Shown here in pieces: positions 12,360 through 28,795 of a DNA stretch of 64,000 nucleotides (positions within the stretch are counted from its first letter, which is position 1; each line of letters begins with the position of its first letter). The DNA is from a virus. The DNA is taken from positions 5,724 through 69,723 of the IMG/VR virus record IMGVR_UViG_3300017783_000010. One strand, 5' to 3'. Under the pieces are notes generated by a model. It made no database searches. It was not told the DNA's origin and saw only the letters and a list, made by a program, of their open reading frames with translations. Position numbers and translations under genes: made by a program.

Positions 12360-12434
12360 TAAAGGGTAATAACTTTAAAAACAAGCACTGCAGAGGTTAT
12401 TACTTATAAAAATTTTGTGGTGCGTTAATTTATT

Positions 12435-12653
12435 ATGGAAACATTACTTAAAATGCTAAATGTTATTTCTTGGATATGTGTAACTGGATGTCCGTTAGTA
12501 ATAGTAATAAAGGTATGTCTACAAAGCAAGTATGAAAACTCATTAGATGAAAAAATAGATATGCTAAAAGGTGTAAAAACTGTATACACACGTGGACTAT
12601 TAAAGTTGAGTATATTATTTGTAGTCGCGTTAGTCTATTTGATTGTGCGATAA
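12435..12653 (+). CDS. Cassette gene, two-TM membrane protein
   Basis: 72 aa; bracketed by ttgtggtgc / gcaccacaac. Confidence 0.65.
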   Translation: METLLKMLNVISWICVTGCPLVIVIKVCLQSKYENSLDEKIDMLKGVKTVYTRGLLKLSILFVVALVYLIVR

Positions 12654-12726
12654 TGCACCACAACGCTAAATGTAAAAAGCGTTTAGGAACGAAATGATTA
12701 GTTACATAATGTTATAAATTTTAATT

Positions 12727-12858
12727 ATGGATATAGAAAAGGAATTTGAAGAACTAAAAGAACTAATAAAAGACACTTACGAGTTTATGGATAGAGACAA
12801 ACTTGACAAGGCTTTAGAAAAACTTGAAAAAATAAGGGTAGACGTGATTGGCAAGTAA
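12727..12858 (+). CDS. Cassette gene, 43-aa hypothetical (not in ORF track)
   Basis: Manual translation MDIEKEFEELKELIKDTYEFMDRDKLDKALEKLEKIRVDVIGK*. Confidence 0.6.
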   Translation: MDIEKEFEELKELIKDTYEFMDRDKLDKALEKLEKIRVDVIGK

Positions 12859-12944
12859 ATGTTTGCTAACGGACGAGTACAAGGTGTCGTAGCGACCTAA
12901 ACAGCACGAAACATTGAATTATAAACAACTTAAATAGATACAAA

Positions 12945-13256
12945 ATGAACTTAATTAAAACACTTACTCGCTATGCACTTTGTACATTGTTAGTTGTCTG
13001 GGCGACTTCTTGCACGGACTCTCGTTTTAAATTACTGAACCGAAATAAAAACGTAGAAATAGGCGATGTTTATTTATATAGCCACGATTGGGATGAAGAA
13101 GACCCATTTGCTAAGATAGAAATAGACACAGTAAGGGTGATTGATGTAAAAGATGGTTATGTAAAATGGCTTTATAAATTAAGTGAAAAAGATAGTAGTT
13201 TTTATTTGAGTGGAAAACTAAAGTATTTTAAGCACAACATTAAGCCTTTCAACTAA
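12945..13256 (+). CDS. Cassette gene, putative lipoprotein
   Basis: Hydrophobic N-terminus ending in WATSC lipobox-like motif; start lies inside the upstream hairpin loop. Confidence 0.6.
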   Translation: MNLIKTLTRYALCTLLVVWATSCTDSRFKLLNRNKNVEIGDVYLYSHDWDEEDPFAKIEIDTVRVIDVKDGYVKWLYKLSEKDSSFYLSGKLKYFKHNIKPFN

Positions 13257-13353
13257 TGTTGAATCTATAAAGCGTGGCGACACGCACAGTATTAATTATT
13301 AACCTTTAACAAGTCCTAGCCATGATTTTATAGATAGTGTTAGGCACAGTTTT

Positions 13354-13593
13354 ATGAGATGGAAAGATAAAAATAATGACGGGTTTTATAAAGGTAAAAA
13401 CAAAGGGTTTTACTTTACTATATCACATGCAAGAGACTATGATGCTTTTTATGTTGTTGCATCCCATCAAAAGAAAGATATTAGATTAAACACTTTGTGG
13501 GAAAATAAGACTTTTAAAACATTTGAATTAGCAGAAGAGTTTTGTAAAACCTTTGACTATAGAAAACACAGATGTATAGGTGACAATACTTAA
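13354..13593 (+). CDS. Cassette gene, hypothetical
   Basis: 79 aa; bracketed by gttaggcaca / tgtgcctaac. Confidence 0.65.
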   Translation: MRWKDKNNDGFYKGKNKGFYFTISHARDYDAFYVVASHQKKDIRLNTLWENKTFKTFELAEEFCKTFDYRKHRCIGDNT

Positions 13594-13655
13594 TTGTGCC
13601 TAACGGTTTATGTATGAGCCGTTGAAATCTAATAAACTTAATAAAAAATTAAACA

Positions 13656-13946
13656 ATGAATAAAGCAAAAAGTAAATTAATAGAAGCTAAAAAATGGCTT
13701 ATACATTTTGTTATGGTGCGTATATTTTTAATAAGTACGCACAAACGCCAAAACTACTTAATAGATAAACACGCAAGTATGTTTTTAGGGTTACAGAACA
13801 TAGCAAAAAAGTACGATAATGACGGAGATGTTAGGACAGCAATGTACATTAGTAGTAAAAGCTACGAACATTTAAATTGGTTTGCTGAATACTGCGGAGT
13901 TTTGAATATAGACCAAGTTAAAAGGATGCGACAATATGCACCATAA
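13656..13946 (+). CDS. Cassette gene, hypothetical
   Basis: 96 aa; stop codon is the TAA of TAAC; start inside the upstream hairpin loop. Confidence 0.6.
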   Translation: MNKAKSKLIEAKKWLIHFVMVRIFLISTHKRQNYLIDKHASMFLGLQNIAKKYDNDGDVRTAMYISSKSYEHLNWFAEYCGVLNIDQVKRMRQYAP

Positions 13947-14005
13947 CGGATTACGGCTAAACTGCGTTGCCGAAGAAATGCAGTATCAATTAAACACATA
14001 AGATT

Positions 14006-14206
14006 ATGAGCAATGAAGTTTTAGCCGATGTTAGCTTTCCGTTATTCCAAGATTTATATGGTAGCTACGTTCAAATGGATGATAGATTTGAAACGGTGCA
14101 TATATGGAGTGAGAAACTAGCAATGAAAAACAAAGGTAGGTGGAAGCCATTATTAATTAGCAAGAAATTGTATGACCAAGAAAAAAAGCACTCTTGGAAT
14201 AATTGA
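14006..14206 (+). CDS. Cassette gene, hypothetical
   Basis: 66 aa; start at the loop/arm boundary of the upstream hairpin; gttagctt / aagctaac ends. Confidence 0.55.
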   Translation: MSNEVLADVSFPLFQDLYGSYVQMDDRFETVHIWSEKLAMKNKGRWKPLLISKKLYDQEKKHSWNN

Positions 14207-14337
14207 AGCTAACGGACGAGTGTATGAAAAAGTAGCCCATACATGGACGTTCGGAATTATTACAAAACTTAATTAGGCTATTTTTTATACACATTGTTAG
14301 CTTTTCGTTTGGAAATCTAGCACAAAACTTAATAGAA

Positions 14338-14628
14338 ATGAACAGTTTATCACACAAAAGTTATGGGGCAATTTATGTTAATAACCCTAAAGACATTAAA
14401 AAAGTAAAAGAAGTAATTAAAGAAATGGATGAGTTTGAATTTGACTATTTGCCATCAGAACTAATAAAGCCTTTTGCTGAATATCCTGCTGTTTGCTACA
14501 CACATAAATTCTCTGATTTAGACACAGATGATTTAACAGCAAAATGTTGGGCAAAAGGAATTATGATTTGGGTGTTTGACGCAAGAACGGAATATCCTAA
14601 AAATGCACTAAGCGAAAATGAAAGCTAA
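14338..14628 (+). CDS. Cassette gene, hypothetical
   Basis: 96 aa; gttagcttt / aaagctaac ends. Confidence 0.65.
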   Translation: MNSLSHKSYGAIYVNNPKDIKKVKEVIKEMDEFEFDYLPSELIKPFAEYPAVCYTHKFSDLDTDDLTAKCWAKGIMIWVFDARTEYPKNALSENES

Positions 14629-14663
14629 CATAGTATATAAGACATATAGCTGATATTTTTTAG

Positions 14664-14719
14664 GATTTGCTTGCAATTGCGCGCAAATCTTTTTAACTTG
14701 GCCTCATTAACTAATTAAA
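14664..14719 (+). promoter_or_regulatory. Promoter/operator module, repeated at 23219-23274
   Basis: gatttgcttgcaattgcg(c/a)gcaaatcttttt-aa(c/a)ttg...tcatta-ctaattaaa in both places directly upstream of genes. Confidence 0.6.
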
Positions 14720-14729
14720 AATATAAGAT

Positions 14730-14921
14730 ATGCTACGTTTAGTTGTTTTAGTAATTTATTGTAAGATGCAAGCATTTGCTTGTGGTAGTATTGAATCTCC
14801 TGATACGTGTATGGAGATGGTATATGATACTACTAAATATGTCGTATCAATAGATTCCTTTAAGTATACTAATTTTATGGAAGAGGGAGTTTGTTTTATT
14901 CATGTGGATACTTTAAAATAA
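14730..14921 (+). CDS. Hypothetical protein
   Basis: 63-aa ORF after the promoter module. Confidence 0.45.
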   Translation: MLRLVVLVIYCKMQAFACGSIESPDTCMEMVYDTTKYVVSIDSFKYTNFMEEGVCFIHVDTLK

Positions 14922-14930
14922 GATAAAATA

Positions 14931-16121
14931 ATGAAACAAGAAAAAATATTAAATGGGATTGCTTTCATTGAGATGGCTGTAGAAATATTAAAGCCCCGAT
15001 CATTAGAGCAAAAATGTAAAAAGGTATATACTAGAAACACCTATATTTCTTATGTGTTTCAATTATTATCCATTTTAACAGGATTAAGTTTTATAGGGTA
15101 TATAGGTAATGAACTTAAAGGAGTATTGTTTATCATATCTTCTTTAGTTTTATTCATTTTGCTTGCAATGATTGAGGCAAGTAAAAGAATACTAATAAAA
15201 GATATAGCTAAACTTTATTTTTCTGAAAATGAGATAAAGTATGTATCTTTATTTTTGTTGGTTATTATATTAGCTGCTTCTGCTAGTATTAGTTATGTGG
15301 GAGGCAGTAAAATACCTTCTGTGATTGTGTCAAGCCAGTCTATTGATTCAACTCAAGTAGCAGAGGTTATTCCTTCTATTCAACTAGACTATACTAGAAA
15401 TCAACTAGATTCAATAGCTAAGTCAATCAGAAAGCAAGAAGCGACTACATATAGAGGAAAAGTAGTTAGGACGGCTAACAATAATTTAACAATACTATAT
15501 GACCAACAATCAGAATATCAAAGTACTCTTTTAGAGTTAGAAAAGGAGCATCAAAAAAAGTTAGATGCTAGGAATCAAGCTTTAGCTGCTATAAAAGAAA
15601 CTAGAGATTTAAAAATAGAAGGTGTCGGATACATCTTTGGAGGAGTAGCTGTTTTTAGTGATATTATGTTAGTGTTTCTTTTATACTTTGCGTATAATTC
15701 CTTGAGAAAAGTTTATAAAAAACATCAAACAAGTACTATACTAAATGCTTATAATGTAACGTTAGAAGAAACGCAAGTACTTGCTAAAGTACCTGAAATC
15801 AAGGAGTTACATGAGCCAAAAGTAACGTTACAAGAAACGCTAGAAGAAAAAGTAACGTTACAAGAAACGCTAGAAGAAACGCAAGAAGAAAAAGTAGCGT
15901 TACAAGAAACGCAAGAAGAAAAAGTAAAAACGGAAGAGGCTACTATAAAAAATGTTCTAAAGATGCCTAAAGCTAAAACTAAAAAAGTCGAAGTAGTAAA
16001 AGGACATTCTAAACAAAGGCGTTGTGATAACTGCGGAGCATCTTATGAATATAAAAGACCAAGTTCGAGGTTTTGTAGTTCAAAATGTAGATTAGAAAAC
16101 CATCAAAATAAAAATAAGTAA
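14931..16121 (+). CDS. Multi-TM coiled-coil protein with C-terminal Cys4 Zn-finger
   Basis: About 4 hydrophobic segments, TLQETLEE repeats, CDNC...FCSSKCR. Confidence 0.65.
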   Translation: MKQEKILNGIAFIEMAVEILKPRSLEQKCKKVYTRNTYISYVFQLLSILTGLSFIGYIGNELKGVLFIISSLVLFILLAMIEASKRILIKDIAKLYFSENEIKYVSLFLLVIILAASASISYVGGSKIPSVIVSSQSIDSTQVAEVIPSIQLDYTRNQLDSIAKSIRKQEATTYRGKVVRTANNNLTILYDQQSEYQSTLLELEKEHQKKLDARNQALAAIKETRDLKIEGVGYIFGGVAVFSDIMLVFLLYFAYNSLRKVYKKHQTSTILNAYNVTLEETQVLAKVPEIKELHEPKVTLQETLEEKVTLQETLEETQEEKVALQETQEEKVKTEEATIKNVLKMPKAKTKKVEVVKGHSKQRRCDNCGASYEYKRPSSRFCSSKCRLENHQNKNK

Positions 16122-18247
16122 TGAAAGATATACCTCATAAAATTATAATGGATTTAGTAGACTTAGAGAAAATATTGGATTCTTGTGTAAAGTCTAAGTT
16201 ATTTTGTTGCGATTTTGAAACTAATACTGTAAATCCTTTTGATGATGATGCCTTAGCTACAATATTAGGATTTACTAATAGAGAGGATTTAATTTATATT
16301 CTACCTATTTATAATGTAGAGGGTACTGTTAGCGAAGAGTTTGTCAAAAAATCTTTTGACCTTATTGCATCAAAGATATTATCAAATTCGAATGTTAGGG
16401 TAATCGCACATAATCTTCAATATGAGTTACATTTCTTTAGATTATGTATGAATAATTATGACTTTGACTTTAAATGTGAGTTGCATGATACGATGGTTAT
16501 GAGTCATTTTATGAACGAAAATCGTAGGCATGGCCTAAAAGGCTTGGTAAATACATTCATAAAATCATATGCAGGCTATGAAAGCGAGTTAAGTCAGTAT
16601 ATGACTGAGAAGAATGATTACTATAATATAAAGTTAGAGCATCTAGCTAGATATTGTGCTATTGATGTTTATGTTACCTTAAAACTTTTTGTGATGTTCG
16701 AGAAAAGGTTGAAAGGAGATGATGAGCATAAAAGGTTATGGGAATGTTATAGTAAAATTAAGATGCCTGCATTGCTCGCTCTTAATGAGGCTACCTCAAA
16801 GGGGATGCATATAGATTTAGAGTTGCTTGCAACTACAATAGAAAAGGTAACAAAAATACAAGAGCAGAAATATGAGGCTATACTCTCTTCTAATGTTCTT
16901 CAAGAATTTCAGTTTGCTAAACGTAAAGAAGCATATGATGCTAGGGTATCTTTATGTAGGGCTAAGATGAAGGAATATAAAGAGCAAGGAAAGAGGGCTT
17001 TTTATAAAAGATGGTCTACTAATTTAGATAAAGCTAATAATAAGCCTAGTGAGGAATGGTATTCTATAAATTTGAATAGTCCTGCTCAGATGAAAGAATT
17101 AATATATACTCATCGTAAAGGATTTAATTATTCTTCTTTAGGTTTATCTAGTGAAACAACAGATTCGTATCAACTAATGGAAATATACCGAATTTTTCCA
17201 TATAATACTTTTTTAGTTAATTTGCTTGCTTATAGGACAGTGAGTAAAATACTAAATACTTATCTGATAGGTATAAGAGATAGGCTAGATGGAGATAAAA
17301 TACATGGTAGGTTTAACATTAATGGTACAAAAACAGGCCGCATATCAAGTTCAGACCCAAATTTACAAAATTTAATTTCTCGTTCATCTATTGATGATGC
17401 GGACGTTCAAGATACTATCAAAATAGTAAAAAAGCTATTTATTGCTCCACAGGGGTATGATTTCGTACAGATTGATTATGCCACTATGGAGTTGAGAATT
17501 GCGGCGGCTTTTGCGGATGAAGGTAATATGATTAAAGCCTTTGCTAACGGTGAGGATTTACACGCTAAAACGGCGGCTAATGTTCTTGAGGGAGTCTCTG
17601 TAGAGGAATTTAATACTTATGAGAAGTCAAAAAGAAAAAAGATCAGATTCAAGGCGAAAGCCGTTAATTTTGGATTTCTTTATGGGATGAGTGCAGAGTC
17701 TTTTAAGGACTATGTTAAGAATATGACTGGACAAATTGTAAGTAGCGAAGAGGCTGTTCATATTAGAAATAAGTTTTTTAAAACTTATTCTAATCTTACC
17801 GATTGGTACACTAAGAGTAGCTCCTTTGTAACAAAATATTCATTTGTTAGGACATTCTTTGGTACTAAGAGAAGAGTAGGCTACTTATTTAATACTACTG
17901 AGAAGTATAAGATAAAAAGTCTCTCAGTAAACGCCCCAGTTCAAGGTACTAGCGGGTTATGGACTCTGGCGGCTATTGCTGAAATATATAAAGAATTTAA
18001 AAATAATGATTCGGTGGTGATAGCTAACACTATACATGATAGTGTTATATTTTATGTGAAAAGAGATCAAGACTATAATAGAAATCTACTAAGGATTCGT
18101 GAAATTATGGAATGGCCTTCGGTAGTAGAGGATTATCCTGCTGTAAAAACATATAAAGAAAACTTGAGGAAAATAGGATTAAAAGTAGATTTAGAGGTTT
18201 CTTCAAAGTCTTGGGGGGATTTAAAAGAAATTGACTTTCCCTCTTGA
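16121..18247 (+). CDS. polA: DNA polymerase family A with 3'-5' exonuclease
   Basis: DFET, HN, YCAID exonuclease motifs; TGRISSSDPNLQN, DYATMELR, KAVNFGFLYG, IHDS. Confidence 0.95.
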   Translation: MKDIPHKIIMDLVDLEKILDSCVKSKLFCCDFETNTVNPFDDDALATILGFTNREDLIYILPIYNVEGTVSEEFVKKSFDLIASKILSNSNVRVIAHNLQYELHFFRLCMNNYDFDFKCELHDTMVMSHFMNENRRHGLKGLVNTFIKSYAGYESELSQYMTEKNDYYNIKLEHLARYCAIDVYVTLKLFVMFEKRLKGDDEHKRLWECYSKIKMPALLALNEATSKGMHIDLELLATTIEKVTKIQEQKYEAILSSNVLQEFQFAKRKEAYDARVSLCRAKMKEYKEQGKRAFYKRWSTNLDKANNKPSEEWYSINLNSPAQMKELIYTHRKGFNYSSLGLSSETTDSYQLMEIYRIFPYNTFLVNLLAYRTVSKILNTYLIGIRDRLDGDKIHGRFNINGTKTGRISSSDPNLQNLISRSSIDDADVQDTIKIVKKLFIAPQGYDFVQIDYATMELRIAAAFADEGNMIKAFANGEDLHAKTAANVLEGVSVEEFNTYEKSKRKKIRFKAKAVNFGFLYGMSAESFKDYVKNMTGQIVSSEEAVHIRNKFFKTYSNLTDWYTKSSSFVTKYSFVRTFFGTKRRVGYLFNTTEKYKIKSLSVNAPVQGTSGLWTLAAIAEIYKEFKNNDSVVIANTIHDSVIFYVKRDQDYNRNLLRIREIMEWPSVVEDYPAVKTYKENLRKIGLKVDLEVSSKSWGDLKEIDFPS

Positions 18248-19010
18248 CTTTTACTATAAAATACATTATATTTGTAAAAGATTTTTTAACCAAAATAAGT
18301 ATATATATATGTCATTTTTAGAAGCATTTCAAACGCAAGAACCGGACAGAGACTTTAATTTTTTAGCAGGCAATAAACTAACTGAACAAGGAACTGACAT
18401 TATAATCAGTAATGTTTGTTTAGGCAATAAACCCTTAAAAAAGGTTGTATTTTGGGCGGAAAAATCCCCTTATATCAGCCAAAAAACATTCAAGGAACAA
18501 TGCCCCTTAGATGATGAGTTACTCGCCTTTTACAAGGCTTATCCGAAGGATTCTCCAGAAAGAGCAGCCCTGAAAAGCCAAAACAGGACTTTCTCAAAAA
18601 AGCAGCCTACCGACTTAGTTGTGTATATAATCAATGGGGATGAAGTAGATAATACCCCTGTGGTATTAAGTTGTGGTTCCGCTTTGTCTGATGCTATCTC
18701 TTCTATTTTAAGTAGCCCCCCAAAAGGCAGTAATGCGGAGGATTTTATTTTAAGCGCCAATGGTCAAGAGATATACCCGATAACGATTAGTAAATCGGGA
18801 ACAGGATTGAATACCAAATATCAAGCGCAAATGCATCTCACTAAATTTGAGTTTGATTCTCCAGAGGCCATCGAATCGGCAAAGGGGGTGGATTTATTAG
18901 GTATAGCTAGAGCAGAAGCTAATAGAAAGCCTATTTATGATGCTTTAGCTTATTTCAAGGACACGGTGGTTCCTACCTGTGTAGCAGGCGAAGTAAGCGA
19001 CAATATTTAG
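18231..19010 (+). CDS. Probable ssDNA-binding / replication accessory protein
   Basis: ITISKSGTGLNTKY motif seen in phage SSB-like proteins; between PolA and SbcD; likely start ATG 18309. Confidence 0.5.
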   Translation: MTFPLDFYYKIHYICKRFFNQNKYIYMSFLEAFQTQEPDRDFNFLAGNKLTEQGTDIIISNVCLGNKPLKKVVFWAEKSPYISQKTFKEQCPLDDELLAFYKAYPKDSPERAALKSQNRTFSKKQPTDLVVYIINGDEVDNTPVVLSCGSALSDAISSILSSPPKGSNAEDFILSANGQEIYPITISKSGTGLNTKYQAQMHLTKFEFDSPEAIESAKGVDLLGIARAEANRKPIYDALAYFKDTVVPTCVAGEVSDNI

Positions 19011-19090
19011 TATGATTTTTAATTAGTTAACTATAGAGGATGGCTTTCATTTTATGTTAGTCATCCTTTTTACTTTAAATTATAATTTGT

Positions 19091-20038
19091 ATGAAAGTAT
19101 TAGTTTTTTCTGACCTTCATGTGAATAAATATAAAAGATTTAGTGATGGGGACAGTAGATTAGATGACTGTTTGAATATACTTAAACAAGTATATAAAAC
19201 AGCTAATGATCATCAAATTGAAAATATATTATTTTGCGGAGATTTTTTTGATACTCAGTACTCTATTAATACTAGGGTATTGACTAAAACTCTGGAAGTA
19301 ATGCAAAAAATGTCGGAGAAATACCCTGAAATTTATATGTTCGGTATTACTGGCAACCATGACCTTGCTACAAGAGAGGGAGATAAATATAGTTCTGCGA
19401 TAAGTATGTTTGATACAATAACCAGTATCAATTTCTTGTCTTTAGATTATAAAGCCGCAAGACTAGGAAAGGATGTTAGAGTAATAGGTATCCCATACAA
19501 AAATTCAGAAATAGAATTTAGTAACGAACTAGATGAGATCGTAAGAAATGAGGATGTATCAGATGCAATTTTATTAGTACATCAAACACCTAAAAAATTC
19601 CATTATACAGGTGAATGCGATGAAAAAGACCCAAGGCTTGATCCCTTTATTAAAGTATTTTCTGGACATATACATGATAGGGATAACTACAACTATAACT
19701 TTACGATGGTAGGCAATCCTTTGCATAGAGATTTATCAGACGCAGGGGTAGAAAAAGGATGCTTAATCTTTGATACAGACACTAAAGTAATAGATTTTAT
19801 ATCTTTTGAGGATTTTTATCCTTCTTTTGTAAAAGTTGAGCAAGGGCAAGAGGATAATTCTTCTGCAAGAGATTTTGTAGTTACCGTAACATCGAATATA
19901 GAGAATGAAAAATTCGATGAAGGGTTAAGTTACTCTGATACGTCTAACCTACAAAATCTGGTGGTACAGTATGTAGAAAATGAGTTACATAGAGATGACT
20001 CAGATTTAGTAATTAAAATCGGAAAAGAATGTATATAA
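19091..20038 (+). CDS. SbcD/Mre11-like metallophosphoesterase nuclease
   Basis: FSDLH, CGDFF, GNHD, SGHIH; adjacent to SbcC-like gene. Confidence 0.9.
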   Translation: MKVLVFSDLHVNKYKRFSDGDSRLDDCLNILKQVYKTANDHQIENILFCGDFFDTQYSINTRVLTKTLEVMQKMSEKYPEIYMFGITGNHDLATREGDKYSSAISMFDTITSINFLSLDYKAARLGKDVRVIGIPYKNSEIEFSNELDEIVRNEDVSDAILLVHQTPKKFHYTGECDEKDPRLDPFIKVFSGHIHDRDNYNYNFTMVGNPLHRDLSDAGVEKGCLIFDTDTKVIDFISFEDFYPSFVKVEQGQEDNSSARDFVVTVTSNIENEKFDEGLSYSDTSNLQNLVVQYVENELHRDDSDLVIKIGKECI

Positions 20039-21795
20039 AATTTAAGGAGTTAGAACTTCTAAACTTTAGGAGTTTTAAAGGTACACACAATTTTACCTTT
20101 TCTGATAAGGGGATTACAATAATAAATGGTAGTAATGGCTCAGGTAAATCCTCATTGATAGAGGCGATGTATTGGACTCTTACTGGTAAATTAGTTAAAC
20201 AAGGGAAGATAGATAGTGCTATATCAGAAGGCTGTAAAAATATGGCTACTTCTTTGGTAATTTCTAAGGGGAAAGAGGATGTTCGTATTGTTAGGTCTTA
20301 TGGCTCTAAAAAGTCTTTGCAAGTATATATAAATGAAGTTGCATCTACACATCTACATAAGAAAGATATACAAGAAAGTATTTATTCATTATTGAATATT
20401 ACCGAAAATAGTATATCAAATACTTTATTCTTTAACCAGAACAGTAAAAGATTATTAGATGCTTCACAAACGGAAAGAAAAAATGTATTAAGTGAGTTGT
20501 TTAACTTGCAATTACTTGAGGCAGCTAAAGATAAGGCTAGATTAAGGTTAAAGGAGTATCAAAAAGCTTTAACAGAGAATGAATATATTATATCTTCTGT
20601 TAAAGCCAAACTGACCTCTGCTAAAAGTAATCTTATCACTACTAATAGCCATAATGAACGTATATTAAGTCAGAAGGAAGGTAGAATTAACGACGCTAGA
20701 AAAGAACTTAATGAATTTGAGTTCGGATTAACTTCTATAGTTGCTCCTGAAATGCCTAGTAAGGTTACTACTCCAACTTTACATGATAGTAGTACTCTTA
20801 TAGCTACTTATAAAGATGATATTGCCTCTATAAAGGCTGAGATTAGATATGATAAAACTAATTTAGATAGGAAGCAGCAAGAATTAAAATCTAGCGATTC
20901 TATTCAAGTATGTAATATTTGCTGTGAGCAGATTAGTAATCAGGCTACTATTGATATTATACGTAATGAGATAAGTACATTAGAGCTAAAAGTACAAAAC
21001 AATATAGATAATCTTAAGTCTAAGGAGTTAGAACTAACTAAAGCTTCTAACAAGCAGGAAGAGTACGATAAACAGCACTCCGAGTATCAATCTTATCTTA
21101 TACGATTAGACAGATATAATGATAAGTTAGATGTATATTCGGATAGAATAGCTAATCAAGAGGCTAGAAGAAAAAACTTACAAGATAGGATAGAAAAGAT
21201 TAAGCAAGAGGATACTTTATTGTTAGATACTATCAAAATCAAGAATGCTGTTTTTGATTTAGGAAAGACGCTAGAGAATTTAGATAAAAAACATAAAGAG
21301 ATACAGTCTAATCTTGAGGCCTCTGAATTTTGGGTAAAAAAAGGATTTACTGGTAATGGCTTACTTGCTTACATTTTAAAAAGTAAAGTTAATGAGTTAA
21401 ATACTATAATTTCTTCCTACTCATACATTTTAGATATTCATGTTAGATTCGAGGTTATAACAGAGGGTAAAACAAAACAGATACAGACGATTACGACTAT
21501 CAATGATATTGATAGAGAGTATGAATGGTTATCTGGGGGAGAAAAAGCTAGAGCTAACTTACTAGTGTCACTAGCATTAAGCAAGCTTCTTTCAGGCACT
21601 ATGAATGCTAATTTGTTAATATTTGATGAAGCATTCTCAGCTTTAGATGAAAAAGGATACGAGGGTATAATTACATTTATATCCGAAATAGCTAAAGATA
21701 AGGAGGTAATTATTATTACTCACAACCTAGACATTGCAGAAGGTCGTAAAGTTCTAATTGAAAAAATTAATAATAAATCAAAAATAAGTAGATAA
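20029..21795 (+). CDS. SbcC/Rad50-like SMC ATPase
   Basis: GSNGSGKS, coiled coil with CNIC hook, LSGGE, FDE, ITH. Confidence 0.92.
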   Translation: MYIKFKELELLNFRSFKGTHNFTFSDKGITIINGSNGSGKSSLIEAMYWTLTGKLVKQGKIDSAISEGCKNMATSLVISKGKEDVRIVRSYGSKKSLQVYINEVASTHLHKKDIQESIYSLLNITENSISNTLFFNQNSKRLLDASQTERKNVLSELFNLQLLEAAKDKARLRLKEYQKALTENEYIISSVKAKLTSAKSNLITTNSHNERILSQKEGRINDARKELNEFEFGLTSIVAPEMPSKVTTPTLHDSSTLIATYKDDIASIKAEIRYDKTNLDRKQQELKSSDSIQVCNICCEQISNQATIDIIRNEISTLELKVQNNIDNLKSKELELTKASNKQEEYDKQHSEYQSYLIRLDRYNDKLDVYSDRIANQEARRKNLQDRIEKIKQEDTLLLDTIKIKNAVFDLGKTLENLDKKHKEIQSNLEASEFWVKKGFTGNGLLAYILKSKVNELNTIISSYSYILDIHVRFEVITEGKTKQIQTITTINDIDREYEWLSGGEKARANLLVSLALSKLLSGTMNANLLIFDEAFSALDEKGYEGIITFISEIAKDKEVIIITHNLDIAEGRKVLIEKINNKSKISR

Positions 21796-23198
21796 TGAGG
21801 TCATATATTAGATTAGAAAAGGGAAAAGAAAAAGAACAGAATCACATAACTATGACGGAAATATCTTACGAGGATGAAAGATATTCCATATTATTCCTAT
21901 CAAATGAGGGTGTAATAGATAATATGCTAAACAATATTGCAGGCAGCTTAGAAAAACAAGAAAATAGGATTGGCGAATCTTACATATTCGATACAATCAT
22001 ACATGAGTATGAGTCATCCTCTCTAAGAGATTTTTCAACCGAATTTACAAAGTCACTAACCCAGTTTGGTTCAGCATTAAGGTGGGGTCTATTTATTGTG
22101 GATGAGCTATTAGATACTGTAACGGTTGTCCTAGATGAGTTAGGAACAATACCTGTTTACTACCGATTATCTGCAGAAAAAATCGAACTGACAACTAGAC
22201 TATTTTTTCAAAAAGGTGTAGAGTGGTCACATGATGGAGTTACCCAGATAATCGGTAATAATATGTCAAGCGATTACTCATTATTATCGGACTGGTATCC
22301 CCTAAAGGCTAATTCTTGCTACAAGTTTACATTAGGTAATGATAGCATTGAGTCAGTTCAAAACTTAAATATTAGTAAATTAGGTATACCAGTTCTGCCT
22401 CATATAGCTGAGGAATTTAACTTTAAAACGAGTTACGACTCGTATGATAATGTGATACAGACTTTTAAGTATATATTTAGTAAAACCGTAGAATCTTTAC
22501 CTAATAACTGCGCTTATTTAGCGCAAGGATCGCCTCTTGATGCTCTTATTATTGAAGAGATGTTCTCCAGAGGGATTAAATTTAAAGTATTCTACATAAA
22601 TGGATTATCTGATACTTATGTAGAATATTTTAAATCGTTTCATGGTCTTAAAACGTGTGATGCGACTGAACTAAAAGTAGATATTGAAGATACAAAATTC
22701 AATGAAATACTATGTAGCTTTGATTATTCTGATTATTTCGTAACAAACGCTATATCACAAATTAAAAAAGATGGTTTTGATGAGGTATTTGGTTGCTTTG
22801 CCGCAAGTTATTTCTTACATGACTGGAAAGGAGGAGAATCAGATATTGCGACACACGCACTAGAAGAATTTATAACGATGAAACAAGATTACCGATCCAG
22901 AATTGGTAAACTTATTGCCGATATATCATTTGTGGCTAAGATTGAAGTCAATGACTTACTAACTAGTGATCTAGTAACTAGCGTGATGCATGGATTCTCG
23001 ATAGCTAGTATGATAGCAGAACTTTCAAACTCAAATATTGATGACTTCGCTAAGTTTCTTAGAAATCTTTATTTCTCATATGGCATTAAGAAAGAAATAA
23101 TCAATGAAACACCTACCTTTTTGTTTACCCCACTTGGAGGCAGTTCAATAGAGCAAAAAGAGGCTTTAGCTGAAAAAATTATTTCTTCTTTACTGTAA
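21795..23198 (+). CDS. Divergent asparagine synthetase/Ntn amidotransferase-like protein
   Basis: DELGTIPVYY resembles the DxxGxKPLYY motif; catalytic motifs appear degenerate. Confidence 0.4.
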   Translation: MRSYIRLEKGKEKEQNHITMTEISYEDERYSILFLSNEGVIDNMLNNIAGSLEKQENRIGESYIFDTIIHEYESSSLRDFSTEFTKSLTQFGSALRWGLFIVDELLDTVTVVLDELGTIPVYYRLSAEKIELTTRLFFQKGVEWSHDGVTQIIGNNMSSDYSLLSDWYPLKANSCYKFTLGNDSIESVQNLNISKLGIPVLPHIAEEFNFKTSYDSYDNVIQTFKYIFSKTVESLPNNCAYLAQGSPLDALIIEEMFSRGIKFKVFYINGLSDTYVEYFKSFHGLKTCDATELKVDIEDTKFNEILCSFDYSDYFVTNAISQIKKDGFDEVFGCFAASYFLHDWKGGESDIATHALEEFITMKQDYRSRIGKLIADISFVAKIEVNDLLTSDLVTSVMHGFSIASMIAELSNSNIDDFAKFLRNLYFSYGIKKEIINETPTFLFTPLGGSSIEQKEALAEKIISSLL

Positions 23199-23283
23199 GT
23201 TAATAAAATATTTTTTAAGATTTGCTTGCAATTGCGAGCAAATCTTTTTAAATTGCAGTCATTATCTAATTAAACTAAATATT

Positions 23284-23661
23284 ATGTCATTATCAGAAGC
23301 ACCAACTACACTCTTAGGAAAAACAGTTCGCTCTATCAGAGAACTAAGTGATGGCTGTATTTCCCTAGAATTTACTGATGGCTCTACTTTTTGGCTAAAT
23401 AGCTCGACAACATTAGCTCCAATAGTTGACTGTAGCAACGATAACTTATTAGGAAACGTTATTGTTGGTATAAAATTTGAATCAACTATTAAATTAGATG
23501 AATCTTTTTATACTTGCAGTATAGAAGTATATAATGATGAAACGTCCTCATACCAGATGTTTTCGATCTGGCTAAAAGGATTAAGCGGTAAGAAAGAGGA
23601 GATGCGAAGAAACTTAAAAACAAATCCACTTCATTTTGTGAATGCAGATTTACCATTTTAA
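23284..23661 (+). CDS. Hypothetical protein
   Basis: 125-aa ORF after the repeated promoter module. Confidence 0.6.
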   Translation: MSLSEAPTTLLGKTVRSIRELSDGCISLEFTDGSTFWLNSSTTLAPIVDCSNDNLLGNVIVGIKFESTIKLDESFYTCSIEVYNDETSSYQMFSIWLKGLSGKKEEMRRNLKTNPLHFVNADLPF

Positions 23662-23663
23662 TT

Positions 23664-23903
23664 ATGAACACGATTATTATAATATTGCTCCTACTTGCAT
23701 TAGTAGGGCATTACAAAATAAATAAAATGAAAGAAGTTATTAAGTTTTTAACCATAGCAGTCATGTATTTTTTAATATTTGCATACGATATAGAGTATCA
23801 TAGGGATGTATATACATGGCTATGGCTCTTAAACAGTATTATATTTATACTATTTGGTGCGATATCTTATACTAATTATAAAAAAAAATTAAATAAAATA
23901 TGA
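23664..23903 (+). CDS. Small membrane protein
   Basis: Hydrophobic 79-aa ORF overlapping the thyA start. Confidence 0.5.
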
Positions 23904-24685
23904 AACAATATCACGATCTGTTAGAAAAACTTGTTCATTCAAGTACAAACAAGGATGACCGAACAGGAACAGGAACATTGAGCGTATTCGGTCATCAAAT
24001 GCGTTTCGACTTGAGTCAAGGGTTCCCGTTAGTGACTACAAAGAAGGTACATTTTAAATCCATTGTACATGAACTTCTGTGGTTCTTAAAAGGGGATACC
24101 AATATTAAATACCTACAAGAAAATGGTGTACGTATTTGGAATGAATGGGCAGATGAAAATGGTAGTATTGGTAAGGGGTATGGCTATCAATGGAGAAACT
24201 GGAATGGAAGCGGTATTGACCAAATTGCAAAAGCAGTAGAGACTATAAAGAATAATCCAGATTCTCGTCGTATTATTGTATCTGCATGGAATGTAGAGCA
24301 GCTAGACGAGATGCAACTACCTCCTTGTCATGCGTTCTTCCAATTTTATGTAGCCGAGGGTAAATTATCATGTCAATTGTATCAGCGTTCGGCTGATGTA
24401 TTTCTTGGTGTACCTTTTAATATTGCTTCTTATTCACTACTAACGATGATGATGGCACAGGTTTGTGATCTGGAAGCAGGAGAATTTGCACACACTCTTG
24501 GTGATGCACACTTATACAAGAATCATTTGGAGCAAGCAAAGCTTCAATTGTCTCGTTCACCAAGGTCTTTACCCTCAATAAAAATCAATCCTCATGTGGA
24601 CGATATATTTTCTTTCCAATTTGATGACTTTGAGTTGATAGATTATAATCCTTATTCACATATCAAAGCAAAAGTAGCTGTATAA
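23900..24685 (+). CDS. thyA: Thymidylate synthase
   Basis: [41 protein letters not shown]. Confidence 0.98.
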
Positions 24686-24788
24686 TGAAAGACAACTTTT
24701 TTAAAGCATTAGGAACAGCTTTGTTTCTTATGTTAATAACATTAATATTTATTTTATCAATAATATTAACACTAGTATTAATATACAT

Positions 24789-25724
24789 ATGAAATATTCA
24801 ACATACTTTTTTGATTCGCTAGGATGGATGCGAATGAACAGATGGCCAGAGGAATATAAAAATTTTCAAGAAAATAAAGAAGAGATTCTTTATAATCCTG
24901 ACTTGGCTTGGCAAGACTGTAATGCAGGCGATTCTCTTTACAGAACTTGCATCTATCTAGCACTAATCGGTAATACATCTCAAGCAGATAGGTTTATTAC
25001 AGACTATTTAGAGGATATGATAAACTCAGGAGAGTATTACAGGCATCCTACCGATTCTAAAAAGCATATCTCAAGAGATCAAATTATTGCTCTTTGCTTT
25101 TTCTTGTATAGATTCAATAAAAAAGAATTAATTAAAAAGATTGCAAGACAGCACAGATTTAGATTTACACTTAAATCTAAGTACGGAACAGGCGCATATC
25201 AAAGCCTTGATTTCTATCTGTTTTTGCAAGCAATTGCGGGCAACTGGATAGCTCGATGTCTATATATGATGCTCGATGGCTTAATATTCCCTTGCATGAT
25301 GGCTTGGAATGTCATAGTAAGAGGTATATTCAGAATGAAGTTTAGACCCTTAGAGCAAGCATTATCCTACATCCCATCACAAAAAGAACGTAATGGGGGT
25401 AAACTACTGTATCCAAAATATGCGCTATTCCTTAATAGCTTGCAGCATTATATGCTATTCGGTAAATCCTCGATGTATGGCAAACTAAAAAGAAAGCTGA
25501 TTCATAATTCAAATGTATATTGTAGATCGTTAGTATATTACGATGGGTCGCCTACCTTGCATGATGTATTTACAACGCATACAGAAATAGAAGGCGGTGT
25601 ACATCTAAGATACCTAGAGGGATCGCAAAGACTAAAAAAGCTGAAAAAAGCTGCATTAGAAAATCAGCTTCAATACTCATTAACAGTAAATCTAGGAATT
25701 TTATTGCTTCTGACAAAAGATTAA
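24789..25724 (+). CDS. Hypothetical protein
   Basis: 311-aa ORF; no recognised family. Confidence 0.65.
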   Translation: MKYSTYFFDSLGWMRMNRWPEEYKNFQENKEEILYNPDLAWQDCNAGDSLYRTCIYLALIGNTSQADRFITDYLEDMINSGEYYRHPTDSKKHISRDQIIALCFFLYRFNKKELIKKIARQHRFRFTLKSKYGTGAYQSLDFYLFLQAIAGNWIARCLYMMLDGLIFPCMMAWNVIVRGIFRMKFRPLEQALSYIPSQKERNGGKLLYPKYALFLNSLQHYMLFGKSSMYGKLKRKLIHNSNVYCRSLVYYDGSPTLHDVFTTHTEIEGGVHLRYLEGSQRLKKLKKAALENQLQYSLTVNLGILLLLTKD

Positions 25725-25744
25725 AATATTTTTTAAAAAATAGG

Positions 25745-25880
25745 TTGGACGCAATCGCTTGCAATTCAATGAGTTGTAAGCGATTTTTTTATTTTATATA
25801 AAATTTATTATATTAATTACTTGCAGGGTATTGTTTATTGTCTTATATTGCAGACATATTATTTAATCAATCAAAAACTT
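25745..25880 (+). repeat. 136-bp terminator+promoter module, copy 1
   Basis: Nearly identical to 28655-28790 (2 differences) and similar to 29552-29684; aatcgcttgcaa...ttgtaagcgatt hairpin + T run, then ttgc...tatattgc promoter-like motif. Confidence 0.9.
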
Positions 25881-25882
25881 TT

Positions 25883-26089
25883 ATGGAAACTGCAAAAATA
25901 TCAATAAAAATCGGGGAAGAGCTAGAAGAAACAGGAATGGTAAATGTTTGGTGGTGGAAAGATGGAAGTGAGCCAAACCAAGAGTGGAAAACAAAAAGAC
26001 CGATATGGGAGTTTCTTGATTCAAAAAAAAACATTTATGCTGACAATAGGAGAAACAATTGTAATAAAGAAATTAAAACTAAAACGTAA
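25883..26089 (+). CDS. Hypothetical protein leading cassette array 2
   Basis: ATG at 25883 directly after the promoter module (track start 25838 is TTG inside the promoter). Confidence 0.55.
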   Translation: METAKISIKIGEELEETGMVNVWWWKDGSEPNQEWKTKRPIWEFLDSKKNIYADNRRNNCNKEIKTKT

Positions 26090-26197
26090 TTTCGAGTTTG
26101 TTCAGTAATGCAGCATAACGTTCAATGTATCGCACGTTTTAATGTGCTATACATAGTGTTAGGTTTTAGTAGAAATTATTAAAAATTATTAAAAATT

Positions 26198-26335
26198 ATG
26201 TATTACGCAGAAAAAATAATAAACGGGATATTACATTGTAAGCACACCCCTAACGGAAAGTGGAATATTAAATGTTACAGGGGTGATATTGATAAACCCG
26301 AAAAACAAACGGTGATACTTATTGATAAGTGGTAG
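26198..26335 (+). CDS. Cassette gene, 45-aa hypothetical (not in ORF track)
   Basis: Manual translation MYYAEKIINGILHCKHTPNGKWNIKCYRGDIDKPEKQTVILIDKW*. Confidence 0.55.
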   Translation: MYYAEKIINGILHCKHTPNGKWNIKCYRGDIDKPEKQTVILIDKW

Positions 26336-26449
26336 CTTGCGCATAACGCCTACGGCTATGAATTGAAGTCGTGTAACAAATGTTCGATTCAAAGAAATAA
26401 CCTTAACAAAGGCTTTTATTTATAGCCATTGTTAGCAAATTTTAAAATT

Positions 26450-26641
26450 ATGATTAAAGAAATTGAAACATTGATTGATGTAGAAGTAAGCATAAACAGA
26501 AGTATTTTAATCTACGAACTTCTTGGGTATTTTGGTGATAGACTTCCAGAAGATGTACAAACTGAAATGAGAGAACGGGCAGTAAAAGAATCCAAACAAG
26601 TTGATAAAATGACCAATAAGGTGGTTAAGCGGTTGCAATAA
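26450..26641 (+). CDS. Cassette gene, hypothetical
   Basis: ATG 26450; gttagcaa / ttgctaac ends. Confidence 0.6.
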   Translation: MIKEIETLIDVEVSINRSILIYELLGYFGDRLPEDVQTEMRERAVKESKQVDKMTNKVVKRLQ

Positions 26642-26748
26642 TTTTTATTGTTGCTAACGGTTTGGCTATGTGCTGAACGTAGAGTAACGGAGTTTTGCAT
26701 ATAGGTAATGTTATATGCTTTTTATTAACAGATTTAAAGTAAAATATT

Positions 26749-26931
26749 ATGAAAAGATTTAATTTAAAATACAACGTAGGAAAAGTAAAGTATTTAGTTT
26801 CTTACCATAATGGAGAAAAGAAACATAAAGATGGAAGCGACTTCTTTGATATTGCTTACTTTAAAAATAAAGTAAAACTAAATGCTTTTACGAATGAATT
26901 ACTAAAACAAGGGTACGTTAATTGCATATAA
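26749..26931 (+). CDS. Cassette gene, hypothetical
   Basis: 60 aa; gttatatgc / gcatataac ends. Confidence 0.65.
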   Translation: MKRFNLKYNVGKVKYLVSYHNGEKKHKDGSDFFDIAYFKNKVKLNAFTNELLKQGYVNCI

Positions 26932-27041
26932 CGGAATCGTATAAGATTTCGTGCGAGGTACGAGGATGAATTTTATACAGTGTTACCCATCTGTATTTTT
27001 AAAAATGGCAATTAGTGAGGAACGAACTAAAATTAAAGAGA

Positions 27042-27638
27042 ATGAGTAAGAAATATAATATTATTTATGCTGACCCAGCTTGGGAACAAAAAGCAGGTAG
27101 ACCATTAAGTGGTGGCTACAAAAAAGAAAATGGTGTGCAAGTATTTAACCCTAAAAGCGATAAATCTGCAGACTTACCTTATAGCACAATGAAGTTTGAG
27201 GATATAGTAAACTTACCTATTAAAAAACTAACTGATGATAACTGTCATTTGTATTTATGGGTTACTAATAAGTATTTAATGAAAGCTGAACAAGTTATTA
27301 AAGCTTGGGGTTTTAAATACTCTACTACTTTAGTTTGGTGTAAGAAACCAATAGGTAGTGGAATGGGGGGAACATTTAAAGTGTCTACAGAATATTTAAT
27401 ATTTGCTACTAAGGGTAAGGTTAATGAATTAGTAAGAGAAAAAGTAAATGGCACTTGGTTTGAAGAAAAAAGACAATATGTAAATGGTTATCCTTGCCAT
27501 TCTAAAAAACCAGATTTCTTTTATGAATTAATAGAGAAAGTATCTAAAGGTAAAAAACTTGAATTATTTTCAAGAAATGAGCGTAAAGATTGGGATGCTT
27601 GGGGAAATGAAATAGAAAATTCAATTACGATTGAGTAA
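27042..27638 (+). CDS. MT-A70 family adenine methyltransferase (cassette gene)
   Basis: KYNIIYADPAW, LYLWVT, WGFKY, HSKKP, LELFSR, WDAWGNE; ATG 27042 preferred over GTG 27015. Confidence 0.9.
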   Translation: MSKKYNIIYADPAWEQKAGRPLSGGYKKENGVQVFNPKSDKSADLPYSTMKFEDIVNLPIKKLTDDNCHLYLWVTNKYLMKAEQVIKAWGFKYSTTLVWCKKPIGSGMGGTFKVSTEYLIFATKGKVNELVREKVNGTWFEEKRQYVNGYPCHSKKPDFFYELIEKVSKGKKLELFSRNERKDWDAWGNEIENSITIE

Positions 27639-27789
27639 GCACGTATGAGTGGTTGCCATTTTTAAAAATACAGATGGGTAACGGTTTGAATAAGATTAGT
27701 AGCGCAACGCTACACACCTTAATGGTTGCACCTGCCCTATTTGCGCTATTAATTTTATTTGTTGTTATAGGGCGTTTTATACTTGAATT

Positions 27790-27993
27790 ATGAATATTAA
27801 TGAAGTTTTTAAAAAATACCCAAACGAAGAACCAAGCTATAATGGCGTTAACTATCTAACGCTAGTTGATGTAAATGGTAATATTAGTTATGCAATCACA
27901 TATTTTAATGATAACGCAGAATTTGAACCTAAATGGGGTAAGGTAGTAGCATTTGCAGACAAACAACCAAGTGATATTTTAAATGCCCTATAA
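27790..27993 (+). CDS. Cassette gene, hypothetical
   Basis: 67 aa; gttatagggc / gccctataac ends. Confidence 0.65.
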   Translation: MNINEVFKKYPNEEPSYNGVNYLTLVDVNGNISYAITYFNDNAEFEPKWGKVVAFADKQPSDILNAL

Positions 27994-28038
27994 CGTAATT
28001 GTATAACAAAAGTTACGTGAAAATAATTACTGTATTTA

Positions 28039-28069
28039 TTTGGTATGTATAAAATATTTACTATCTTTG
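28039..28069 (+). promoter_or_regulatory. Bacteroidota-type sigma70 promoter inside a cassette hairpin loop
   Basis: TTTG (28039-42), 19 nt, TATCTTTG (28062-69) matches -33 TTTG / -7 TAnnTTTG. Confidence 0.65.
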
Positions 28070-28096
28070 TTAAACAATAACTTAAAAACAGATATT

Positions 28097-28294
28097 ATGA
28101 GTACTACAGAAAAGACATTACAAGCCTTTACAAAAGAAGTAAACCCGCTAAATGAAAACTGCATCTGCATTTTTGAACAAAGAGCAGTTAGAAAGCATTT
28201 ACTATTCCAAATTGATAAAGCAAATTTTGAAAGCGATAACGAGTTTTTAAATGCAGTTGATTTTATACTAATTTCATTAAATAAGAACTTGTAA
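28097..28294 (+). CDS. Hypothetical protein inside hairpin loop
   Basis: ATG 28097 downstream of promoter; 65 aa. Confidence 0.6.
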   Translation: MSTTEKTLQAFTKEVNPLNENCICIFEQRAVRKHLLFQIDKANFESDNEFLNAVDFILISLNKNL

Positions 28295-28443
28295 TGGCGA
28301 CTAAAAAAGTAACAATTACAATCACAGACGAAATGCACCAAAAAGGAAACGACTTATCTGTTTTGGTGCTTGGGAATGAAAACTTTAGTGGCTTAATAAG
28401 CTATATGATTAATAAACTTCATAAAGAAACGAATAGCAAGTAA
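28294..28443 (+). CDS. Ribbon-helix-helix-like small DNA-binding protein (not in ORF track)
   Basis: MATKKVTITITDEMHQKGNDLSVLVLGNENFSGLISYMINKLHKETNSK*; alternating beta strand followed by two helices; TAATG coupling. Confidence 0.55.
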   Translation: MATKKVTITITDEMHQKGNDLSVLVLGNENFSGLISYMINKLHKETNSK

Positions 28444-28654
28444 TTTTTGTTATACGTTGTTATGTGCGCTTTTTGCGCTTGTAGTGGTGGTTTTAATGCA
28501 CTAGTCTAGTCTAGCGAAAATACGTTGGCAATGAGGATTGTGAAACGAACTGCAACAAACTTAAACCACCATTACACATAACATAGTATATCAGCTATAT
28601 GTCTGATATACTCTCCATTCATAAGCTATTATTTTTTTTTTTTTAAAAATTAGT

Positions 28655-28790
28655 TTGGACGCAATCGCTTGCAATTCAATGAGTTGTAAGCGATTTTTTT
28701 ATTTTATATAAAATTTATTATATTAATTACTTGCAGGGTATTGTTTATTGTCTTATCTTGCATACATATTATTTAATCAATCAAAAACTT
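28655..28790 (+). repeat. 136-bp terminator+promoter module, copy 2
   Basis: Direct repeat of 25745-25880. Confidence 0.9.
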
Positions 28791-28795
28791 AAATT

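Follow-up and report, generated by a model that had tools for sequence, protein, structure and literature searches.

Probable integron-type cassette arrays with inverted gene polarity in a Flavobacteriaceae-type phage

The window analysed here is a 64,000-nt stretch (positions 5,724 to 69,723) of the 69.7-kb virus record IMGVR_UViG_3300017783_000010 and is part of a Flavobacteriaceae-type phage. On its + strand it contains two arrays of small open reading frames (ORFs), at ~12.4–14.7 kb and ~25.9–28.6 kb, in which the ORFs are separated by hairpins and no promoter-like module lies in between. The arrays are probably integron-type cassette arrays with inverted gene polarity, carried by a phage without a recombinase of its own. 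Their hairpins belong to an attC-like family that is common to many marine phages and to Bacteroidota chromosomal arrays. The phage arrays are inverted relative to the arrays of the Bacteroidota host type and, since classical integrons fold the strand antisense to their cassette genes, relative to classical integrons as well.

On the + strand the hairpins follow a common plan. It begins with a variable 7–10 nt, TAAC, and G plus about 5 nt, and leads into a stem that often starts with GTATA. After a loop of 4 to 420 nt, a return arm ending in TATAC is followed by 2–4 nt ending in T, by GTTA and by a further variable 7–10 nt. The compact form is AAC-G-5nt-stem-loop-stem-3nt-GTT. The internal loop is asymmetric, with 5–6 nt after AAC versus 2–4 nt before GTT (5–6 versus 2–3 nt in the original prediction). 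All five stems quoted in that prediction were recovered in place by reading and repeat search. Sites were called with a detector for AAC, 5–8 nt, a stem, 2–4 nt and GTT, in which G.T and A.C pairs were penalised equally. It returned 10 sites on the + strand of the window (8 in the two arrays and 2 elsewhere, at 23619 and 30288) and 4 on the − strand; the number for shuffled windows was 7.2 per 64 kb, both strands taken together. On the + strand, the stems of the 8 array sites comprised 90 Watson-Crick pairs, 11 G.T pairs, no A.C pair and 2 other mismatches, which agrees with the earlier statement that stem imperfections are mostly G.T pairs on this strand. Four units (listed below) were missed by the detector and seen by folding: h3 (TAAT for TAAC), g3 (one G.G in the stem), g6 (420-nt loop) and g7.

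Two public collections were then scanned with a pattern drawn from the window sites, which gave at least 119 viral and at least 120 genomic stretches. All family-wide counts cover the matches listed; the genomic ones among them are overwhelmingly from Bacteroidota. With a looser detector, whole arrays were found around the matches, for example 18 sites in locus L033 and 15 in L121. The 304 listed hairpins scoring 9 or more, false hits included, contained 3885 Watson-Crick, 391 G.T and 86 A.C pairs and 91 other mismatches. Wobble positions were counted in sites scoring 11 or more (144 viral, 67 genomic). The 3'-arm base 15 nt before GTT was T opposite G in 85% of viral and 80% of genomic sites, and the base 10 nt before GTT in 49% and 39%, respectively; the wobble G always lay on the 5' arm. 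A third conserved G.T was located 8 nt outside the core boxes (64/96 viral and 15/27 genomic sites). Stems are 8–23 bp long and continuous, without extrahelical bases and with fixed G.T wobbles instead. The invariance of AAC and GTT follows from the design of the detector; the conservation of TAACG and TGTTA goes beyond that. Positions 2–7 outside AAC and GTT formed Watson-Crick pairs in 52–77% of cases across one cassette versus 22–41% across one hairpin. Pairing across the cassette and not across the hairpin is what cutting and rejoining of units inside the core would be expected to leave. In the window, such cassette-flanking pairs are GGTGCGTAT/ATATGCACC around ORF 13656–13946 and GGGCGTTT/AAATGCCC around ORF 27790–27993.

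For polarity, the coding strand of each flank was called by the longest stop-free frame and compared with the strand on which the wobbles read as G.T (the G.T strand). Viral flanks had the ORF on the G.T strand in 202 cases and on the other strand in 36 (149 ambiguous); for genomic flanks the figures were 26 and 131 (31 ambiguous). By majority, 50 viral loci were of the same, 2 of the opposite and 3 of tied polarity, versus 5, 31 and 6 genomic loci. The inverted polarity suspected from the window was thereby found in the great majority of the viral loci. Among the five genomic exceptions, four (L143, L156, L212, L222) are short contigs from assemblies or metagenome-assembled genomes with sequence in common with viral contigs. 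They are probably pieces of phage DNA that were binned as bacterial; all four have phage-type polarity, and one is filed under Treponemataceae. In Tenacibaculum sp. A30 (L258) a 366-aa recombinase gene is followed by cassette ORFs on the same strand, and the G.T strand of three hairpins is opposite to that strand. The layout in Muriicola sp. Z0-33 (L247/L226) is the same. Bacteroidota chromosomes with integron-like arrays beside a XerA/IntI-like recombinase that is devoid of the IntI-specific insertion also include L183, L203, L190 (Pontibacter) and others. The phage relative L001 carries a further cassette stretch on its minus strand (586–640 and 1196–1288), upstream of the shared backbone and without counterpart in the window; it includes a MT-A70-like gene, and its hairpins are oriented with the genes.

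Sequence comparison of viral loci supports co-segregation of the phage hairpin with the downstream ORF, as had been proposed. Among similar hairpins at different loci, 10 pairs (14 hairpins) shared only the downstream flank and one pair (L117/L065) only the upstream flank; both flanks were shared in 12 pairs. In BLAST blocks, hairpin and downstream sequence were shared and the upstream sequence differed for 24 hairpins. Upstream sequence and hairpin were shared for 6, 4 of these being reverse-strand detections of true sites, and for 13 hairpins the shared block was upstream only and ended at AAC. Ends of homology blocks cluster within T-A-A-C-G, i.e. on the 3–5-nt AAC core. The unit 13601–13949 recurs between unlike flanks in two other metagenomic studies, bounded by AAC boxes: X6 record 23 matches only 13601–13949, and X5 record 12 matches 13600–13948. 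Of ~160 upstream ORFs, 12 extend beyond the AAC box and the others stop ahead of it or at it; 32 use the TAA of TAAC as stop codon. The first downstream ATG was in the loop in 19 of the 51 long hairpins having an ORF call; the window has such loop ATGs in h2 and h5, and start codons inside hairpins had already been mentioned in the original prediction. A first, ORF-centred linkage tally (5 upstream-hairpin-only versus 3 downstream-hairpin-only cases, some at locus ends) was too small. An X5 contig joint (12771->14399) was given no weight because of just 21 nt on one side.

Cassette content turns over between related phages. In the relative L001/G011, the sequence on either side of array 1 is 88–92% identical and the cassettes there are entirely different; homology to L001 is lost from the helicase stop up to the terminal TAAC, where it returns. 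Array 2 of G011 shares only hairpin g3 and the following leader (GTTATATGC) with array 2 of the window. Unit g6 has 94% identity to its counterpart in Polaribacter phage Danklef and 89% to that in Tenacibaculum phage JQ; the breakpoints lie at TAAC and GTTA. Genes are also replaced within a conserved frame, presumably by homology: in Polaribacter phage P12002L, a 30-nt frame with the same leader and trailer holds a Mom-like gene instead of the MT-A70 gene. Near-identical inverted-repeat frames of 30 nt (GTTACC..TTTTTAAAAA..), which have leader and trailer in common, enclose DNA-modification genes of the MT-A70, Dam-like and Mom-like families; these frames are located at 26982–27011/27653–27682 in the window, at 5028–5057/5776–5805 in L002 and at ~4165–4195/4795–4825 in L003.

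The features of array 1 are, in order:
12366–12403, + strand: first hairpin behind the helicase stop, degenerate, GTAATAAC..GTTATTAC, weak fold (−2.2 kcal/mol)
12435–12859, + strand: degenerate start of array 1 with small ORFs 12435–12653 and 12728–12859
12651–12714, + strand: hairpin h1, weak, TAAT-type, not called by the strict detector
12867–12992, + strand: hairpin h2, stem WWWWWWgWWW, ATG of the next ORF (12945) in the loop
12945–13256, + strand: cassette ORF, 103 aa, lipoprotein-like signal peptide, no Pfam or PHROG match
13253–13342, + strand: hairpin h3, 5' box variant TAAT, seen by folding
13354–13593, + strand: cassette ORF, 79 aa, flanks GTTAGGCACA / TGTGCCTAAC
13601–13949, + strand: whole mobile unit of TAAC, hairpin h4 (13601–13713), 96-aa ORF 13656–13946 and TAACGG
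13944–14033, + strand: hairpin h5, ATG at 14006 in the loop
14006–14206, + strand: cassette ORF, 66 aa
14210–14299, + strand: hairpin h6
14338–14628, + strand: cassette ORF, 96 aa, last of array 1
14626–14660, + strand: putative attI-like terminal half-site, TAAC-ATAGTATATAAG.., followed by a palindromic terminator

The features of array 2 are:
25883–26089, + strand: first ORF of array 2, 68 aa, preceded by the repeated terminator/promoter-like module
26116–26161, + strand: hairpin g1, 46-nt class
26344–26434, + strand: hairpin g2
26429–26641, + strand: cassette ORF, flanks GTTAGCAA / TTGCTAAC
26655–26713, + strand: hairpin g3, one G.G in the stem, seen by folding
26749–26931, + strand: cassette ORF, 60 aa, stop codon formed by the TAA of TAACGG
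26929–26985, + strand: hairpin g4, with a homologue in Polaribacter phage P12002L that has the same loop and compensatory stem changes
26982–27682, + strand: MT-A70 methyltransferase cassette, ORF 27015–27638 (PF05063, 1.4e-27)
27679–27767, + strand: hairpin g5, 19-bp stem with 2 G.T, arms 27689–27707/27741–27759
27790–27993, + strand: cassette ORF, 67 aa, flanks GTTATAGGGCGTTT / AAATGCCCTATAAC
27991–28462, + strand: unit g6, hairpin with a 420-nt loop, arms 27995–28010/28440–28455
28459–28582, + strand: non-coding unit g7, GTTATGTG..CACATAAC
28579–28615, + strand: putative attI-like terminal half-site, TAAC-ATAGTATATCAGC..

The first 500 nt of array 1 were classed as degenerate because the flanks of ORF 12435–12653 (GGTGCGTTA/TAATGCACC, with GTTA on the inner side) do not fit the unit plan. 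The reading frame of the signal peptide of ORF 12945–13256 runs across the 3' arm of h2 and its GTTAG box. The stem arms of h4 are located at 13610–13623/13693–13706, and hairpin h5 was found alone in 4 X5 contigs. A relative of h6 with compensatory stem changes lies on the minus strand of L001, where it precedes a methyltransferase-like gene on that strand. In array 2, the MT-A70 ORF is enclosed by a perfect 30-nt inverted repeat (26982–27011/27653–27682), and the loop of g6 contains two ORFs (28097–28294 and 28294–28443). Unit g7 is cassette-like and has no ORF. Its fold reached −21.3 kcal/mol (z −3.4; 0 of 200 shuffles as good), and a counterpart with compensatory stem changes was found by reading in Tenacibaculum phage JQ (L004 ~3235–3365); g7 could represent either an empty cassette or a small RNA. 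Ten cassette ORFs searched against Pfam and PHROGs had no match except two at chance level. Array 1 had no match in the phage collection, distant mode included.

Both arrays end with TAAC followed by ATAGTATAT.. rather than by G and a hairpin, and then by a terminator; the array end of relative L001 reads AAGGTATATCAG. From their sequence, these terminal sites appear to be attI-like. A motif AAC-N3-5-TATAT(A/C) is common to the window, L001, L079, L006, Tenacibaculum and Muriicola. In the viral loci L079 and L006, AAC-TAC-TATATATCA is located ~45 nt before the start of a tyrosine recombinase gene. These two loci and L077 carry a recombinase gene of 266–269 aa after the array and on the same strand; L077 shares this layout, with a different site. 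In the chromosomes, Tenacibaculum AAC-TAGTT-TATATAC and Muriicola AAC-TTGT-TATATGC lie between array and recombinase gene. The earlier observation that both arrays share a 3' site can thus be extended, as this site resembles the one abutting recombinase genes in phage and bacterial elements. The two terminal sites of the window are alike except for a 13-nt core, which is inverted (14640–14652 AGACATATAGCTG versus 28592–28604 CAGCTATATGTCT) and sits in a short palindromic context. Recombinase homologues were present in 9 of the 120 listed genomic 8-kb loci and in 5 of ~124 viral loci. Polaribacter phage Danklef_1 has a degraded XerA-like recombinase gene after a cassette array (L263 2973–3492; 40972–41491), and the 43-aa 'integrase' annotated in this phage is the tail of that gene. 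ORF 14931–16121 (396 aa), just past the end of array 1 where an integrase might sit, is not a recombinase; its product is a membrane protein with a C-terminal Cys-rich motif and without family match. Searches of 30 larger window ORFs against Pfam or PHROGs yielded no integrase.

In the mechanism that we propose, the mobile unit would extend from one AAC box to the next on the best-folding strand, with the hairpin first and the cargo behind it. In phages, with the ORF on the G.T strand, the hairpin would precede its gene and might hold its start codon, and the array would be read from an upstream promoter towards the attI-like end. In chromosomes, cargo ORFs antisense to the G.T strand would give the classical order of ORF, then attC. 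Recombination would most likely be catalysed by a XerA/IntI-like tyrosine recombinase acting on the folded G.T strand at the AAC box; such an enzyme is proposed because related phages encode one after the attI-like site and host chromosomes beside their arrays. We infer a cut at AA|C and likewise the cleaved strand, the enzyme serving the window phage and activity at the present day. On the G.T strand the layout would then be alike everywhere, namely hairpin, cargo, next hairpin, AAC with the attI-like site, and the region of the recombinase gene, and the elements would differ in gene direction: cargo and recombinase both antisense in Bacteroidota chromosomes and both sense in phages. In classical integrons, the cargo is antisense and the integrase sense on this strand. 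The G.T wobbles, which are C.A mismatches on the other strand, would likely mark the active strand in place of extrahelical bases. The IntI-specific insertion contacts the extrahelical bases in IntI, and marking by wobbles would therefore fit an enzyme without this insertion. It is an even call whether the marine Flavobacteriia phages represent a third integron topology, in which the recombining strand encodes both cassettes and recombinase, arranged as cassettes, attI, recombinase, a compact XerA-like enzyme without the IntI insertion serves them, and the active strand is marked by fixed G.T wobbles.

Several results weigh against integron-type arrays of inverted polarity. The window, the whole record (G000) and the complete relative G011 yielded no recombinase, so that activity in the window phage would need an enzyme in trans. 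The recombinases of the related loci are closest to NF040815 ('tyrosine recombinase/integron integrase') and score below its cut-off of 220 (170–209 bits), as they do for TIGR02249 (121–195 bits, cut-off 265); their alignment to the IntI model is split in two, and ~43 residues are missing at the IntI-specific insertion. In bacterial loci, the linkage and breakpoint tests were uninformative: high-scoring segment pairs mostly covered the hairpin alone, one test had 3 cases, and another had 1 syntenic pair. For this reason the cassette boundary in chromosomes is drawn by analogy with classical integrons. Fold energies give a less clear picture than the mismatches do, and the strand asymmetry in energy is modest. 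With DNA parameters, the + strand was the more stable one in 7 of 11 window units and the − strand in 4, with a mean difference of ~−1.1 kcal/mol and z-scores of single units against shuffles from −0.65 to −3.4; with RNA parameters the + strand was better in 11 of 14 units. The original claim that the sense strand folds was thus borne out as an average, but not in every unit and by a small difference. Family-wide, with DNA parameters, the G.T strand had a small mean advantage of −1.3 kcal/mol and was more stable in 164/215 viral sites; among the genomic sites it was more stable in 67/100. Two further counts and the gene swaps in conserved frames also belong here and are taken up with the alternatives below.

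The G.T asymmetry could also arise at the RNA level, as the original prediction had already conceded. The hairpins would then be elements of polycistronic phage transcripts, either processing or stabilising stem-loops or loops presenting start codons, with no site-specific recombination. The G.T strand of the phages is indeed the transcribed sense strand, and with RNA parameters it was more stable in 183/215 viral sites, by 4.3 kcal/mol on average; start codons in A-rich loops and the well-folded, non-coding g7 point the same way. However, in chromosomal arrays the same G.T positions are fixed on the strand opposite to that of the cassette mRNA, which makes an RNA-only origin unlikely and which the G-U alternative cannot explain. 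Mobility at the DNA level is indicated by the complementarity of cassette ends, the replacement of whole arrays, the AAC-bounded units found elsewhere and the adjacent recombinases, and Rfam at gathering threshold had no match in the window. We therefore consider this reading improbable; an added RNA role of the phage hairpins is possible. Very improbable is an array of classical polarity, in which each hairpin would be the attC of the upstream ORF, the antisense strand would fold and the cut would fall at G|TT of the 3' box. ORFs do end just before the hairpins, 32 with the TAA of TAAC, as in ordinary cassettes, shared blocks start at the GTT box with a differing hairpin in 19 cases, and the L117/L065 pair shares its upstream flank only. 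This is opposed by the 11 G.T versus 0 A.C pairs on the + strand, by the 10 to 1 ratio in favour of the downstream flank, by a recurring unit (13601–13949) that includes h4 and not h5, by ORFs that start within hairpins and by a polarity opposite to that of the chromosomal arrays.

Another reading dispenses with a dedicated recombinase altogether: homologous or replication-slippage recombination between similar hairpins or frames would shuffle the arrays, as has reportedly been proposed for the promoter-stem-loop modules of T4-type phages. It would account for the 248 pairs of similar hairpins at different viral loci that share neither flank, i.e. for hairpin families that recur beside unrelated genes, and for different genes in the same 30-nt frame and leader; the window phage, which is without a recombinase, encodes Mre11/Rad50. 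Gene swaps in conserved frames (MT-A70/Mom-like, g3 leader) indicate that other recombination routes also act. As the general explanation, this reading is improbable, given that neighbouring window hairpins share little beyond AACG and GTT, that breakpoints fall on the 3–5-nt AAC core and that related phages and hosts have a tyrosine recombinase beside the attI-like site. Integron-type cassette arrays of inverted polarity thus remain the preferred reading.

Integrons are the textbook case of gene capture by single-strand, structure-specific recombination. Like classical integron arrays and clusters of attC sites lacking integrases (CALINs), the window has promoterless small ORFs between imperfect hairpins with AAC...GTT outer boxes. 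The family of phages and hosts also resembles classical arrays in its complementary cassette ends and in a putative attI-like array end beside a tyrosine recombinase. It differs from classical attC in that phage ORFs are on the folding (G.T) strand with the hairpin before the gene, and in that fixed G.T wobbles and a 6/3-nt asymmetric spacer are present and extrahelical bases are not; the associated recombinases are without the IntI-specific insertion, and the array is transcribed towards attI. The chromosomal arrays of Bacteroidota (Tenacibaculum sp. A30, Muriicola sp. Z0-33, Pontibacter and others) have the hairpin family, G.T positions, attI-like motif and recombinase family in common with the phages. 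Unlike in the phages, their cassette ORFs and recombinase are on the other strand, in the order recombinase, attI, cassettes. T4-type phages have hyperplastic regions in which small accessory genes are bracketed by stem-loops and shuffled between relatives as promoter-stem-loop modules. Those modules are long promoter-carrying repeats recombined by homology, whereas the window hairpins differ in sequence and share short core boxes and structure.

In reversed-integrase integrons of the Treponema/Spirochaetota type, integrase and cassettes are co-oriented as in the phages; the integrase gene alone is reversed in that type, whereas in the phages the cargo is reversed relative to attC. Integrons of this type are mentioned in 10.1101/2022.02.06.479319. 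Qi et al. 2023 (PMC9892861) described a CALIN in Polaribacter phage P12002L with two predicted attC sites around two methyltransferase genes. In that paper the sites are said to have 'divergent directions', with no description of polarity; the 'bottom' strand of one site recombined with attI1 via IntI1, and the 'top' strand gave no recombinants. Few complete integrons in Bacteroidetes are reported in the IntegronFinder 2.0 paper (PMC9024848). The literature searched held no description of inverted coding polarity, of fixed G.T wobbles, or of phage arrays followed by a XerA-like recombinase.

The two arrays are carried by a lytic-type Flavobacteriaceae phage. That their surroundings are those of a phage is evident from primase, DnaB, helicase, PolA, Mre11/Rad50, ThyA and TerL genes on a 69.7-kb virus record. 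The following genes were identified:
7552–8916: DnaB-like, replication module
8913–9893: primase-like, replication module
10965–12359: SF2 helicase, replication module; array 1 starts after its stop
16121–18247: family A polymerase (PolA), replication module
19091–21795: Mre11/Rad50-like, replication module
23900–24685: thymidylate synthase (ThyA), replication module
41542–42792: large terminase (TerL)

The structural genes form a long run on the + strand. The window has a G+C content of ~32%, with G > C throughout on the + strand, and its closest named relatives at the DNA level are Polaribacter and Tenacibaculum phages. A module of ~140 nt is present in three copies (25740–25880, 28650–28795 and 29550–29690). 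A hairpin terminator (AATCGCTTGCA..TGTAAGCGATT) and, behind it, a promoter-like stretch TTG..TA..TTTG make up this module, which starts each transcription unit. Two tandem-repeat tracts were noted further downstream. One is coding (30060–30205, within ORF 30015–30779, 15-nt unit GAAAAACTCGAAT(C/T)T) and the other non-coding (30826–30990, unit of ~20 nt, CTCGATGGTTG(A/G)..GATAG).

The fixed polarity of integrons, with the ORF followed by attC and the bottom strand folding, underlies both detection software and models of cassette expression. If the inverted polarity is true, it would account for the fact that standard tools detected no more than two 'divergent' sites in one of these phages, and it would provide a natural test of strand choice without extrahelical bases and without the IntI insertion. 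The hyperplastic accessory regions of marine phages, in which DNA methyltransferases that plausibly act against restriction are among the cargo, would also be given a mechanism, and the question would arise whether orientation keeps phage and host cassette pools apart. Should the third topology hold, these pools would be mirror images of each other, and a cassette transferred between them by site-specific recombination would arrive antisense and silent.

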